Virus record (IMG/VR): IMGVR_UViG_2778261457_000007
Reading direction: 5' to 3' (one strand)
DNA from: a virus
Lineage: Duplodnaviria > Heunggongvirae > Uroviricota > Caudoviricetes
DNA length: 46,467 bases
Part shown: piece after piece, positions 3,901 through 40,618 of the stretch
Layout: the number at the start of each line of letters is the position of its first letter
How positions within the stretch are numbered: the first letter of the stretch is position 1
The notes under the pieces: model-generated
The model's database searches: none
Told to the model about the DNA's origin: nothing
The model's input: the letters and a program-made list of their open reading frames with translations, nothing else
Made by a program: the position numbers and the translations under genes

Positions 3901-4528
3901 TCGTTTCTGACGTTTTCGCCGCACCGGCACTGGTAGCCGCCGCGCTTTTTGAGGACTCTGCAGCGGCAGCACTTTTTAATGCTTCAGTGGCCTTTGTTGA
4001 TGCCGTTCCTGCGCTGGAAGACGCTGACTGAGCCGACGAAGCAGCCTGTCCGGCTGACGTGCTGGCTGCGCGTGCTGAGCCTGCAGCATCAGTCGCATGG
4101 GTTGCCGCCTCACGGGCTGATGTGCTGGCATCGCTGGCTGACTTCTTCGCGGCCGCCGTGTTCTGTGCCACCGCGGACGCGTTACGCGCCACCTCTTCCA
4201 CCATCAGTTCAAAACGGCGCAGTGCCTCAGGACGGGCATCATCCTCCGTCATGGCACCGAGAAAATCATTCAGCGTACCGGGTCGGGAATCTTCATACAC
4301 GGTGATGGTCCCGGCATGTGACGGCGGGAATCCTTCCACCAACAGAATAACGCTGTACTGACCGTACTCAACGTCCATGCTGTAACGCCCGGCTTCATCC
4401 GGATTTTCTGAGGCCAGCGTGTTCACCACCACAGTGGTACTGTTACGTTTTGCTTTCAGCTGGATTGTGCAGTTCTGTACCGGTTTTCCTGTGCCGTCTT
4501 TCAGTACACCTGAAATCTTTACTGCCAT
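998..4528 (-). CDS. stf: side tail fiber protein
   Basis: N-terminus [26 protein letters not shown] as in lambda Stf; long Ala/Ser/Thr-rich repeats; His-rich C-terminus ([18 protein letters not shown]). ATG at 4528 preceded by GGGGTG; the ORF track begins at an upstream GTG (4534). Confidence 0.9.
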
Positions 4529-37634: not shown

Positions 37635-37991
37635 TTAAAAAATCAGAACGCCGTGCGGCCTCAACACCCGAAAAGCTTCTTTAAATCTCTGTCGCAAATC
37701 ATCACGCCAGGCATCTTTATTCAGCCGTCCATATTTCTTTCCCATCCAGGCGTTATCACCAACACGCTCAAGATGCGGAGGGTCTAATACAACCATCGAA
37801 AAAGATGCGTCTGCAAATGATAATGCACGAAAATCTGCGATAATGTCAGGGCTGATAATCAAGCGTCTCCCATTGCGTAATGTGTATCCTTCTTTTCTGA
37901 TATCGCTGAATATCGCCCGTTTGTCAGACTTATCGAACCAGAACATGCGGCTGCCACAGCACATATCAAGAATGGTTGCCGGTGCACTCAC
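37635..37991 (-). CDS. small DNA/RNA amino-methyltransferase-like protein, possibly truncated
   Basis: 118 aa with motif-I-like ILDMCCGSRMF and motif-IV DPPH about 55 residues later, then stop; GTG start overlaps the upstream stop (GTGA). Confidence 0.5.
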   Translation of the reverse strand: MSAPATILDMCCGSRMFWFDKSDKRAIFSDIRKEGYTLRNGRRLIISPDIIADFRALSFADASFSMVVLDPPHLERVGDNAWMGKKYGRLNKDAWRDDLRQRFKEAFRVLRPHGVLIF

Positions 37992-38410
37992 TGCGCCACG
38001 TCCTGAAAATTACCCTGATAGAAAGCCAGTATGCGCTGCATAACTTCGCTCTTCCGGCACTCGCGACAGATTATGTTTAGGCGACTGTCGTAGCGACGTA
38101 TTTCTCCGTCAGGTGATGACCAGATAAGGTCCGGATCAACCATAGCAGGTTTCTTCACCTTTGCCCTCGAGAGTTTTTTGCGGGCGTTTTGCCAGTCCTT
38201 ACGCGCCTGTTCAGAGGGGAATAACCCGTAGCCGGAGTTGTATACATCGCCACTGGCTACCAGCTCTCTGGCAAGAACGCTCATCAGATATCTAGTCGCA
38301 CCTGTTTTAGCTTCCAGTTGCCGTAACGTCTCACGGCCGCTCTGGCGCACGAGTTCCACCACCTGCCATTTAATTTTTTCCCGCTCTTCTTGTGTAAAAA
38401 CTTTTGCCAC
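37988..38410 (-). CDS. hypothetical protein (140 aa), translationally coupled to the methyltransferase-like gene
   Basis: MAKVFTQEEREKIKWQVVELVRQSGRETLRQLEAKTGATRYLMSVLARELV...; Cys pair ICRECRK; unknown function. Confidence 0.45.
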   Translation of the reverse strand: MAKVFTQEEREKIKWQVVELVRQSGRETLRQLEAKTGATRYLMSVLARELVASGDVYNSGYGLFPSEQARKDWQNARKKLSRAKVKKPAMVDPDLIWSSPDGEIRRYDSRLNIICRECRKSEVMQRILAFYQGNFQDVAQ

Positions 38411-38450: not shown

Positions 38451-39416
38451 TTATCCTCTGAAACCAGGCGGAATTTCTGTATCCGGTTCAGAAATATGAT
38501 TAACACAACGCTGTACAGGTGAACGTCCCAGGCGGATGACCAGTTCGTCCCATTTTTCGCGGAGCTTTGACGGGCTCATGATGTTTTTTACCCAGAATGG
38601 ATCTCGCTGAACCCGACCAAACATTTCGCAAATTTGTCTGTGGCTTCTGCCATCCAGCATCCGCATTGTGCGCACGTCATTGGCCCAGGCAGTCCAGTTA
38701 GGCTCTTTTGGTCGCATGATCTCGCCATCATCACTGGCTGCCTGTTCGTAGAGACCCACGATCCGCCCCCAGATCCACTGCGCACACGCCAAATCCTCCC
38801 TGCTACCCCACTGGCGTTTTTTCGCACTAAACACAACCGCGTCGGAGTTCCGGGTTAAAGAATCCTGTTCAGTCGTCTGCGGGTCCGGTTGCGAAGCTTC
38901 CGGACGAAAAGTGTTTTTATTCTCTGTAGTAATCTCTGTTGTATTCTCTGTAAGATCATCAGGCCATTTTGACCCGATGACATTGGGTCGTTTTGAACCA
39001 ATGGAGCGTTTCATTTTGACCTCTTCCATCGTGTCATTTTGACCTGATGGAGCGGCGCATTTTGAACCGATGGATTCGCTCAATTTGCCACCATCTAAAA
39101 GCTCGCTCCCATAGTTGATCGTGTAGAAATTGGTCATATCGCGCTTTGATTTATTGAGCTTTTCACAACGCAAAAGCCCCAGCGTTTTCAGACTTGCAAA
39201 CGCGCGCTTTAACGTTGACTCTGACCAGAATGGGAACTGTTCCAGCCATTGTTCCGTTGTGTTATAAATCCAGCGAACACCATCACATTCCATGCCGGAG
39301 TTGGTATCTCTCAACCAGTAGTGCAGTTGTTGCAAAACAATGGCTTCGTTTAAGCCAATTTTCATTGCCAGCTGCGTGTTTATAACCAGTGGGCGTTCAG
39401 CAAAAAGAAGGCTCAT
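38451..39416 (-). CDS. phage replication initiator (O-analog, N-terminal winged-helix-like domain)
   Basis: MSLLFAERPLVINTQLAMKIGLNEAIVLQQLHYWL...; contains the iteron array in its coding sequence; ORF track starts at an upstream TTG (39470). Confidence 0.65.
   Translation of the reverse strand: MSLLFAERPLVINTQLAMKIGLNEAIVLQQLHYWLRDTNSGMECDGVRWIYNTTEQWLEQFPFWSESTLKRAFASLKTLGLLRCEKLNKSKRDMTNFYTINYGSELLDGGKLSESIGSKCAAPSGQNDTMEEVKMKRSIGSKRPNVIGSKWPDDLTENTTEITTENKNTFRPEASQPDPQTTEQDSLTRNSDAVVFSAKKRQWGSREDLACAQWIWGRIVGLYEQAASDDGEIMRPKEPNWTAWANDVRTMRMLDGRSHRQICEMFGRVQRDPFWVKNIMSPSKLREKWDELVIRLGRSPVQRCVNHISEPDTEIPPGFRG
38965..39080. repeat. iteron array, five direct repeats at about 23-bp spacing (candidate replication origin)
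   Basis: CATTTTGACC / TTTTGAACC cores at 38967, 38991, 39014, 39037 and 39060; adjacent TCTCTGT-repeat A/T-rich tract at 38910-38950. Confidence 0.6.
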
Positions 39417-39918
39417 AATTCCATCCAGCTTTTTGTTGGTATTGCTGTCGATACGCAAGCTTGAAAGCAATTGCTTTTTCTATAAGTTCGTCAGTTTCAC
39501 GATCCACTACGGCAGGATCAGCAAAAAGCAGTCCGGACTCCACCACATCGCCATATTCTTTGTTTAACCCGGCGATCATGCACGTGATGCTTTTTCCGTC
39601 AGTAATTTCACGATACAACCTGAAATCACTAATCCGGATAGCCTCCATAATCGCAGGCACTAGCGCCGTGAACTTTTCACGCTTATCCCTGGTGTCGATA
39701 GCCTTCCAGCGTTCGAATATCTTCACTCGATTAACACCAAGCGCTCGCTGATCAACCGCGCCACCTTCATCTGTGACACGCTGAACATCGATGTTCGGGC
39801 GCTCTTTCAAAGCCCAGAATGCTTCAGTGATTAATATCGTCGCCTGCTCCTGTGTCATTCCTGGTCGACATATCCAGGCATCCAGAGCCTCACGAGCCTG
39901 TTCAGGAGTGATTTTCAT
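39397..39918 (-). CDS. hypothetical protein (173 aa) between dicC and the replication gene
   Basis: MKITPEQAREALDAWICRPGMTQEQATILITEAFWALKERP...; overlaps both neighbours by short stretches. Confidence 0.45.
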   Translation of the reverse strand: MKITPEQAREALDAWICRPGMTQEQATILITEAFWALKERPNIDVQRVTDEGGAVDQRALGVNRVKIFERWKAIDTRDKREKFTALVPAIMEAIRISDFRLYREITDGKSITCMIAGLNKEYGDVVESGLLFADPAVVDRETDELIEKAIAFKLAYRQQYQQKAGWNYEPSFC

Positions 39919-40129
39919 TGTTCAACCGCCCCGCCCGCTTCGTCTTACGATATTCATCATAAACTTTGGGATCATACTGAAGCTCCCCGCCAGATGCCTC
40001 CTGTAGACGCATCGCGCGACCTTCAGGAACCAGTATCCCCCAAGCAGCAACACTTGCCAGCCTCACTCCTGCGGCATTGGCAAGCTTTGTTTTGCTGCCA
40101 AAAAAAGTAATTGCGTCAACTTTAAGCAT
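39902..40129 (-). CDS. dicC: Cro-like regulator DicC
   Basis: MLKVDAITFFGSKTKLANAAGVRLASVAAWGILVPEGRAMRLQEASGGELQYDPKVY...; ATG at 40129 preceded by GAGGGGGG; divergent from dicA. Confidence 0.8.
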   Translation of the reverse strand: MLKVDAITFFGSKTKLANAAGVRLASVAAWGILVPEGRAMRLQEASGGELQYDPKVYDEYRKTKRAGRLNNENHS

Positions 40130-40142
40130 CAAAGCCCCCCTC

Positions 40143-40162
40143 TTGTTAGACTTTTCTAACAT
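40143..40162. promoter_or_regulatory. operator palindrome in the dicC-dicA divergent promoter region
   Basis: TTGTTAGA-CTTT-TCTAACA inverted repeat read directly. Confidence 0.6.
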
Positions 40163-40210: not shown

Positions 40211-40618
40211 ATGGATACAAGAACCCTGGGCCAGCGAGTTCTGGCGCGACGAAAAGAATTACGCTTAACACAACGAGAAGCCGCGCGCCTCGCTGGAGTT
40301 GCTCACGTCACAATTTCACAATGGGAAAGAGACGAAACCCAGCCAGTCGGAAAACGATTGTTTGCTTTAGCGGATGCTCTGAAGTGCTCACCTACATGGC
40401 TAATGTTTGGTGACGAAGACAAGGCACCAGTGCCTGCACAAGAACTTCATGTGGAAACAGAGCTAACTCCCAACCACAAAGAATTGATCGAATTATTCGA
40501 TGCTCTTCCATCTTCCGAGCAGGAAGCCTTGCTGTCTGAAATGCGCGCAAGAGTAGAAAACTTCAACAAACTCTTCGAAGAAATGCTTAAAGCGCGTAAA
40601 AATAAATCAATAAAATAA
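40211..40618 (+). CDS. dicA: XRE-family repressor DicA
   Basis: 135 aa with HTH (LTQREAARLAGVAHVTISQWERDETQP) and conserved C-terminus EMRARVENFNKLFEEMLKARK; DicA-like by recall. Confidence 0.85.
   Translation: MDTRTLGQRVLARRKELRLTQREAARLAGVAHVTISQWERDETQPVGKRLFALADALKCSPTWLMFGDEDKAPVPAQELHVETELTPNHKELIELFDALPSSEQEALLSEMRARVENFNKLFEEMLKARKNKSIK

Follow-up and report, generated by a model that had tools for sequence, protein, structure and literature searches.

A candidate origin of replication within the initiator gene of a temperate phage of the Qin/lambda type

Iterons and an A/T-rich cassette within an O-like initiator gene

The window analysed here, the whole 46,467-nt stretch of IMG/VR virus record IMGVR_UViG_2778261457_000007, belongs to a lambda-morphology, Qin-like temperate phage that, over the gene discussed below, is 99.8% identical to Escherichia phage PhiR42_1 (from ECOR13). 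In the middle of an O-like replication initiator gene on its minus strand (38451–39416) lie six 23-bp iterons and, beside them, three A/T-rich 12-bp repeats, which together probably form the vegetative replication origin of this phage. According to the list of open reading frames (ORFs), the gene has an ATG start (MSLLFAERP), encodes 321 amino acids (aa) and ends with a stop codon at 38451–38453. The original prediction took this gene for a replication initiator and placed both repeat elements within its coding sequence, and we found both points to hold: the protein matches PHROG 391 ('replication initiation O-like') with an E-value of 6.3e-91 (residues 35–339 of a 339-aa ORF against profile positions 11–298 of 298), its C-terminal domain is homologous to lambda O, the gene stands after cro/cII-like genes, and both repeat sets fall inside the minus-strand ORF. 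The counterpart coding sequence in PhiR42_1 is annotated as 'DNA replication protein O', the 321-aa protein is labelled 'hypothetical protein' in NCBI and UniRef, and scans of the initiator and nine N-domain homologues returned no Pfam or NCBIfam family match, only sub-threshold winged-helix hints.

On the plus strand, the core CATTTTGAMC, as originally described, occurs at 38965–38974, 39012–39021, 39035–39044 and 39058–39067, and with one mismatch (CGTTTTGAAC) at 38989–38998, giving core spacings of 24, 23, 23 and 23 bp for the five copies. Five direct repeats about 23 bp apart had been proposed; the repeats and their spacing stand, at positions 2 nt to the left of those first given, while the count has to be raised to six by a degenerate copy with the core CAAATTG (39081–39087), which is still in the 23-bp register. 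On the coding (minus) strand, GKTCAAAAYG has six exact matches in the window (0.66 expected), a number reached in none of 100 shuffles; five of them lie within 38965–39067, and the sole other one, at 4207, is within chance. No other iteron-like cluster was found in the window. Tandem Repeats Finder reported a period of 23 (3.7 copies, score 70), and a second repeat search also returned 23-nt units. The six iterons occupy 38957–39095 in the middle of the gene, each dyad-symmetric about its CAAA(A/T)TG core or central A-tract (e.g., CATCgGGTCAAAATGgCCtGATG). In gene direction, and all on the minus strand, they comprise the degenerate iteron 1 (39073–39095, GATGGTGGCAAATTGAGCGAATC), in 23-bp register with iteron 2 (39050–39072, CATCGGTTCAAAATGCGCCGCTC), followed by iteron 3 (39027–39049, CATCAGGTCAAAATGACACGATG) with the dyad arms CATC..GATG, iteron 4 (39004–39026, GAAGAGGTCAAAATGAAACGCTC), iteron 5 (38981–39003, CATTGGTTCAAAACGACCCAATG) and iteron 6 (38957–38979, CATCGGGTCAAAATGGCCTGATG), which adjoins the A/T-rich repeats. 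A scan for DnaA boxes gave two matches in the window versus four expected, none of them inside the origin, and hence provided no evidence for DnaA dependence.

The flanking A/T-rich tract of TCTCTGT repeats, also part of the original prediction, is indeed present as three 12-bp units with about 66% A+T. Read on the minus strand, this cassette (38916–38951; the tract as a whole extends to 38953) consists of the 12-mers ACAGAGAATACA, ACAGAGATTACT and ACAGAGAATAAA, all of the form ACAGAGA-N-TAC-N, and is a candidate DNA-unwinding or helicase-entry element. The motif ACAGAGAWTA has four matches in the window, three of them in the cassette, versus 0.08 expected. Moreover, the least stable 41-mer of the gene, 38914–38954, coincides with the cassette (nearest-neighbour free energy of −45.6 kcal/mol versus a window mean of −57.1, standard deviation 4.9). 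A full-text literature search for the cassette sequence retrieved unrelated primers only, the motif not being printed in the literature searched. Where iteron 6 meets the cassette, the sequence reads GATC (38955–38958, no strand assigned). Of 175 distinct origin regions, 66 have such a site no more than 14 nt upstream of the cassette, as against about 5% expected. Behind the initiator there is often a gene for a DNA methyltransferase (37635–37991 in the window; Dam genes in loci L002 and L003); a link to methylation is possible.

The protein encoded around these repeats has the following parts, all encoded on the minus strand. The N-terminal domain (aa 1–110; 39087–39416), presumed to bind the iterons, has a winged-helix fold of the pSK41 Rep/DnaD-N type, which AlphaFold2 predicted with confidence from a 97-sequence alignment (predicted local distance difference test score, pLDDT, 82–95). 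It is followed by a predicted disordered linker (aa 111–178; 38883–39086), whose coding part holds the whole origin: the mean pLDDT per 10-residue block is 35–56 over aa 111–190, every residue from 129 to 178 scores below 50, and the low-confidence stretch, aa 111–178, coincides exactly with what the iterons and the cassette encode. The C-terminal helical domain (aa 179–296; 38529–38882; pLDDT 72–87) is a homologue of the lambda O C-domain (BLASTP, 34% identity over 148 aa, E-value 5e-26). The tail beyond it is disordered in the AlphaFold2 model, and its last 20 residues, QRCVNHISEPDTEIPPGFRG (38454–38513), are identical at 15 of 20 positions to E. coli DnaT 160–179 (PDB 9zbt, 2ru8; E-value 2e-4). 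This likeness does not extend to full-length DnaT, as the NCBIfam DnaT model (NF002770) scored 16.2 bits against a cutoff of 201, with only the last 20 residues aligned; sequence searches of the PDB returned nothing for the N- or the C-domain and the DnaT tail only. Many lambda-O-type C-domains end in such a (D/E)Y..IPxGFRG tail. An ORF with a Walker A motif, taken as a rough stand-in for a gene encoding a loader or helicase, was present within 1.5 kb downstream of only 1 of 66 distinct tail-bearing proteins versus 12 of 61 tail-less ones. The 2026 preprimosome and 2014 DnaT structure papers (PMC13377028, PMC4132743) describe no role for DnaT residues 154–179, and our literature search found no paper on a DnaT-like tail in phage initiators.

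The setting of the gene is that of a lambdoid initiator: it lies in the early-right operon directly downstream of a Cro-like gene (39902–40162, minus strand) and a cII/YdaT-like gene (39397–39918, minus strand), the latter overlapping it by 20 nt, and this operon diverges from a cI-like repressor gene (40211–40618, plus strand). In some records the initiator is fused to the upstream YdaT/cII-like gene as a 448-aa 'toxin YdaT family protein'. Downstream follow a DUF977/Ren-like gene (37988–38410, minus strand) and the methyltransferase gene mentioned above, an adjacent P-type loader or helicase gene being absent. Annotation of the whole PhiR42_1 genome, which was deposited as complete, likewise lists no P, DnaC-like loader, helicase or primase, and the initiator is its sole replication gene. 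Of 5,426 complete E. coli genomes, 1,996 (37%) carry the origin region, and the RefSeq label of the gene is nearly always 'hypothetical protein'.

Conservation, variation and selection on the DNA

Proteins whose N-terminal 110 residues are 45–76% identical to those of the window initiator occur in phages and prophages of Escherichia, Klebsiella, Erwinia/Pantoea, Pseudomonas, Campylobacterales, Staphylococcus, Bacillus and Lactobacillales. In almost all of these homologues, the DNA just after the N-domain carries 2–6 repeats at 22–24 bp (autocorrelation peak at 23) with a central CAAA(A/T)TG and symmetric arms that are specific to the lineage (GGT..ACC in E. coli, GGGA..TCCC in Pantoea, GGAT..ATCC in Limosilactobacillus), and these repeats are followed by 2–5 copies of ACAGAGA-N-TAC-N. 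In 110 of 165 origin regions, the last iteron core and the first cassette copy are 17–20 nt apart. Complementarity of the iteron arms is 0.56 compared with the 0.25 expected. The genes next door are quite different from one case to another (HNH endonuclease, methylases, primase-helicase or nothing), so that it is the N-domain which constantly accompanies the repeats. The majority of database matches to the N-domain profile (P0121–P0240) have lengths of just 100–190 aa and end in or shortly past the iterons, a sign that the repeats may frequently interrupt gene calls or assemblies.

A comparison of repeat number among relatives had been proposed originally, and it separates two scales of variation. 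An IMG/VR search with the N-domain retrieved only relatives with 97–100% identical N-domains and 90–100% identical whole genes, 57 of them distinct, and among these the number and spacing of the iterons are constant, as opposed to the range of two to six in the diverse homologues. Polymorphism in the close relatives is lowest over iterons 5 and 6 and the cassette, iteron 6 being near-invariant, and iteron 4 is the most polymorphic iteron. A larger change is seen in six database proteins of 290 aa (P0016–P0021), whose genes have a clean in-frame deletion of 93 bp (23+23+23+24) reaching from iteron 2 to iteron 6. Two iterons, iteron 6 among them, and the cassette are left, and the flanking module looks intact (L292:3290-3470, NCBI DBLUCI010000006.1). 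This natural loss of 31 aa hints that the linker of the window protein may be dispensable. The classical ori-minus mutations of lambda are in-frame deletions located among the iterons.

The cassette pattern ACAGAGANTACNACAGAGANTAC has more than 120 exact matches in IMG/VR, nearly all of them mid-ORF, 135–185 codons into initiator-sized genes, and the N-domains of the genes concerned chain into one cluster, whereas their C-domains fall into 12 unrelated clusters. Klebsiella phages, for instance, have the N-domain, iterons and cassette in common with the window and a different C-domain. In O genes of Shiga toxin (Stx) phages, a 40-bp cassette is 97.5% identical to that of the window, while the iterons differ (GGGAAA-type) and the N-domain is only distantly related (hhalign E-value 1.4e-4); this sharing has the appearance of a mosaic junction where N- and C-domain meet. 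The Stx phages sharing the cassette are the Stx2a phage Stx2_14040 (LC567818, L004:2500-2560) and about 20 others, with a helicase gene downstream.

Several observations bear on whether the repeats are kept as DNA or as peptide. The iteron cores start in reading frames 1, 0, 2, 1 and 1, so that all three frames are used. The reiterated SIGSK peptide pointed out in the original prediction is real, but limited: (S/V)IGSK arises from three iteron copies only (SIGSK twice, VIGSK once), since the 23-bp period shifts the cores between frames. We also counted codons in 36 distinct diverse homologues, including phages with 58–60% G+C, whose cassettes were chosen at the protein level as in-frame TExT repeats. 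The cassette Thr codon is ACA in 95 of 95 cases (17% of the Thr codons in the rest of these genes), and the Glu codon is GAG in 95 of 95 (51% elsewhere). Additionally, the motifs are spaced by 11 bp in Staphylococcus phage 96, a Paenalcaligenes prophage and prophages of Campylobacterales and Limosilactobacillus, and hence the cassette motif is read in differing frames. The use of all three frames by the iteron cores, the frozen cassette codons and the 11-bp variants together indicate that selection acts on the DNA. Judging from these data, iterons and cassette appear to be DNA signals and not peptide repeats, both repeat types being maintained as nucleic-acid elements.

A proposed origin, its mechanism and the alternatives

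In our view, a Qin/lambda-type temperate phage most likely starts its vegetative replication here, from an origin that occupies the middle part of its initiator gene. Several findings favour this reading. The repeats are phased and far more numerous than chance would give, and selection acts on them as DNA. The N-domain, 22–24-bp iterons and the cassette are found together in lineages ranging from Enterobacterales to Staphylococcus, Bacillus and Lactobacillales, despite differing neighbours. The iterons resemble cognate binding sites in their behaviour: apart from the complementarity of the arms, arm identity is higher within a locus (0.59) than between loci, and between loci it drops from 0.63 to 0.44 with increasing divergence of the N-domains (Spearman 0.34). 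The C-domain is homologous to lambda O, and the order of the elements is that of the annotated lambda ori. The cassette contains the least stable duplex of the gene, and the origin-encoded residues 111–178 are predicted to be disordered. Lastly, the initiator is the only replication gene of the complete phage PhiR42_1. Binding, unwinding and helicase recruitment are steps that we infer. Transcription from the cro-side early promoter would supply the 321-aa initiator, whose winged-helix N-domains may bind as dimers to the six dyad-symmetric iterons, with arms converging on the central A-tract. The bound dimers would build an O-some-like nucleoprotein complex, and the resulting stress could be relieved by opening of the adjacent least-stable duplex, i.e., the three ACAGAGA-N-TAC-N 12-mers located 17–20 nt from the last iteron. 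Host DnaB would then be brought in by the lambda-O-like C-domain and/or the DnaT-like tail; given that the phage has no P, DnaC-like loader or helicase, recruitment through one of these parts is expected. The origin DNA would at the same time serve as the coding sequence for the disordered linker between the two domains.

Several points weigh against this reading. Our literature search on the initiator family found no binding, footprint, mini-replicon or marker-frequency data. In Bacillus and Neobacillus, five loci (L134, L136, L137, L145, L150) lack both iterons and cassette, so that an in-gene origin is no necessary companion of the N-domain. Shared ancestry confounds the co-variation statistics given above for the iteron arms. 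Among the 57 close relatives, polymorphism over the origin is only moderately below that of the flanks, and iteron 4 varies. The cassette, for its part, ranks in the top 1.3% of the window for low stability, and many A/T-rich stretches are more extreme. The fixed synonymous codons could in principle reflect a signal at the mRNA rather than the DNA level. Finally, the 93-bp deletion variants, which keep two iterons, imply either that few iterons suffice or that those prophages are dead.

Among the other explanations, the one we take most seriously, though we consider it improbable, is that the iterons are initiator-binding sites serving mainly for control (O autoregulation, copy-number handcuffing or exclusion of related phages) and that replication starts elsewhere. 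Iterons of plasmids and of lambda also have control and exclusion roles (PMC3349717, PMC4857107). Nevertheless, a conserved low-stability cassette fixed 17–20 nt from the last iteron has the geometry of an opening site and not of an operator, this same layout is a proven origin in both lambda and pSK41, and the window offers no second iteron-like cluster at which replication might start instead, the match at 4207 being within chance.

Less probable still is the possibility that the cassette is kept mainly as a recombination linker for the shuffling of lambdoid initiator modules and is no origin element at all. Its position exactly at the C-domain swap point, where 12 unrelated C-domain clusters follow, would suit such a role, as would its near-identity in Stx-phage O genes with other iterons and N-domains and the exchanged C-domain of the Klebsiella phages. 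Recombination alone, however, cannot fix synonymous sites between phages of Proteobacteria and Firmicutes, nor can it keep an 11-bp-spaced motif in other frames or a constant distance to the last iteron; besides, roles in recombination and in the origin are not mutually exclusive. We attach the least weight, amounting to very little, to the idea that the repeats exist for the protein, in which a reiterated peptide would act as a repeat or linker with a function of its own, the repetition in the DNA being a by-product. The region is translated, and SIGSK/VIGSK and TE(N/I)T each appear three times, but the iteron cores lie in three frames, the encoded region is predicted to be disordered, the natural 31-aa in-frame deletion removes most of it, the synonymous positions of the cassette are invariant and the 11-bp-spaced variants alter the peptide. 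As this explanation is contradicted by the frame and codon data, we rejected it. There was no sign of a pac site or a regulatory RNA, though no search aimed at either was made.

If the site is the origin, as we prefer to read it, the analysis provides a usable annotation of origin and initiator for a very common type of E. coli prophage that is without a Pfam family; our literature search found no paper on the origin of this initiator family. The placement of an origin in its initiator gene is already known and is the expected arrangement, whereas the codon-frozen cassette shared across phyla, the DnaT-like tail and the fact that a common E. coli module was left unannotated are less expected. 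Two leads follow, namely a sequence-conserved opening element spanning phyla and an initiator that mimics the host DnaT tail. We would tentatively speculate, while regarding it as rather doubtful, that the ACAGAGA-N-TAC-N 11/12-mers are more than a tract that melts easily, namely a sequence-specific opening or helicase-entry signal, conserved from Proteobacteria to Firmicutes phages and read as double- or single-stranded DNA by this winged-helix initiator superfamily, and that initiators of the E. coli branch do without a phage helicase loader by carrying the C-terminal 20 residues of host DnaT. If so, the tail would plug the phage origin into the DnaT-dependent DnaB/DnaC loading pathway of the host.

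Comparison with known origins and initiators

Origins located inside initiator genes are well known, and phage annotators infer them routinely (PMC8022706). A close likeness exists to lambda, along with the Stx phages 933W and P27, P22 gene 18 and phage L gene 18, in which the origin lies in the middle of an initiator gene of the early-right operon. Lambda-type origins have 4–6 dyad-symmetric iterons of about 20 bp, spaced by 20–24 bp, followed by an A/T-rich opening region (PMC7466680, PMC8022706), and in lambda and Stx phages this combination of iterons and A/T-rich tract in the middle of O is such that two iterons and the tract are enough for unwinding, O also binding A/T-rich single strands (PMC7466680). 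The window conforms to this plan: in gene direction, its six 23-bp iterons are followed by the 36-bp low-stability cassette, which is the order of the annotated lambda ori, and the lambda-like arrangement put forward originally is therefore supported on comparative grounds. The accompanying statement that the repeat sequence is unrelated to that of lambda does not wholly hold, as the central CAAA(A/T)(C/T)G is common to the window and lambda iterons (TCAAAACG, TCAAATTG, TCCCTCAAAACGAGGGA), and both have flanking dyad arms, even if the arms themselves are unlike in sequence. Further differences are that the A/T tract of lambda is generic, in contrast to the sequence-conserved 12-mer repeat of the window, and that the window is without a P gene, loader or helicase, a DnaT-like tail replacing the C-terminus of lambda O. 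While the C-terminal domain is homologous to that of lambda O, the N-domain has no detectable sequence similarity to it (hhalign against lambda O aa 1–138, probability 0.1%), and the initiator gives no match to Pfam Phage_rep_O.

The N-terminal half recalls instead the RepA_N initiators (pSK41/pTZ2162 Rep; PLE RepA), which are likewise about 320 aa long, with a DNA-binding N-domain and an exchangeable C-domain. In pSK41 Rep, the N-domain binds four boxes in the centre of rep, the central domain encoded by the origin is a dispensable linker and the C-domain is host-specific (PMC5703833); the predicted disordered linker of the window protein corresponds to this origin-encoded part. The iterons of the RepA_N group have the form of inverted repeats that meet at a poly-A tract (PMC7145576). 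In our inspection of pSK41 rep (L294:13600-13760), four 22-bp boxes, GTGTCAAAAGGACAC, are followed by A/T-rich 15-mer tandem repeats, GATACTGATTTTATT, i.e., the same two-part layout of semi-palindromic boxes of about 22 bp on an A-tract, central in the gene, as in the window and in lambda. The boxes of pSK41 Rep (GTCAAAAGG) also have the central core of the window, which makes a TCAAAA-centred core common to three initiator families, whose N-domains show no detectable sequence homology to one another. The window protein differs from the RepA_N group in that Pfam PF06970 is not matched (no Pfam match at E<=1 for nine family members), that its N-domain does not align with that of pSK41 Rep (hhalign probability 0.1%), that its A/T-rich repeats are ACAGAGA 12-mers and not 15-mers, that its C-domain is lambda-O-like and not DnaG-binding, and that its family is found mostly in phages, many of Gram-negative hosts. 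As the profile comparisons revealed no detectable homology of the N-domain to lambda O or pSK41 Rep, we claim membership of neither family on that basis.

Chromosomal origins of the oriC type contain DNA-unwinding elements made of 13-mer repeats. The cassette resembles these and their plasmid counterparts in being a set of three short, low-stability tandem repeats beside an initiator-binding array, often with GATC at the edge; it differs in being purine-rich on the coding strand, conserved across phyla and situated inside an ORF, and we regard it as a candidate opening element only. The repeats of plasmid unwinding elements are bound as single-stranded DNA by Rep proteins (PMC10602881). For E. 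coli DnaT (primosomal protein i), the likeness is confined to the last 20 residues of the initiator. Taken together, N-domain fold and iteron design are RepA_N-like in the window, the C-domain is lambda-O-like, and the module links lambda O, through the C-domain, with the RepA_N plasmid initiators, through the fold of the N-domain and the design of the iterons.

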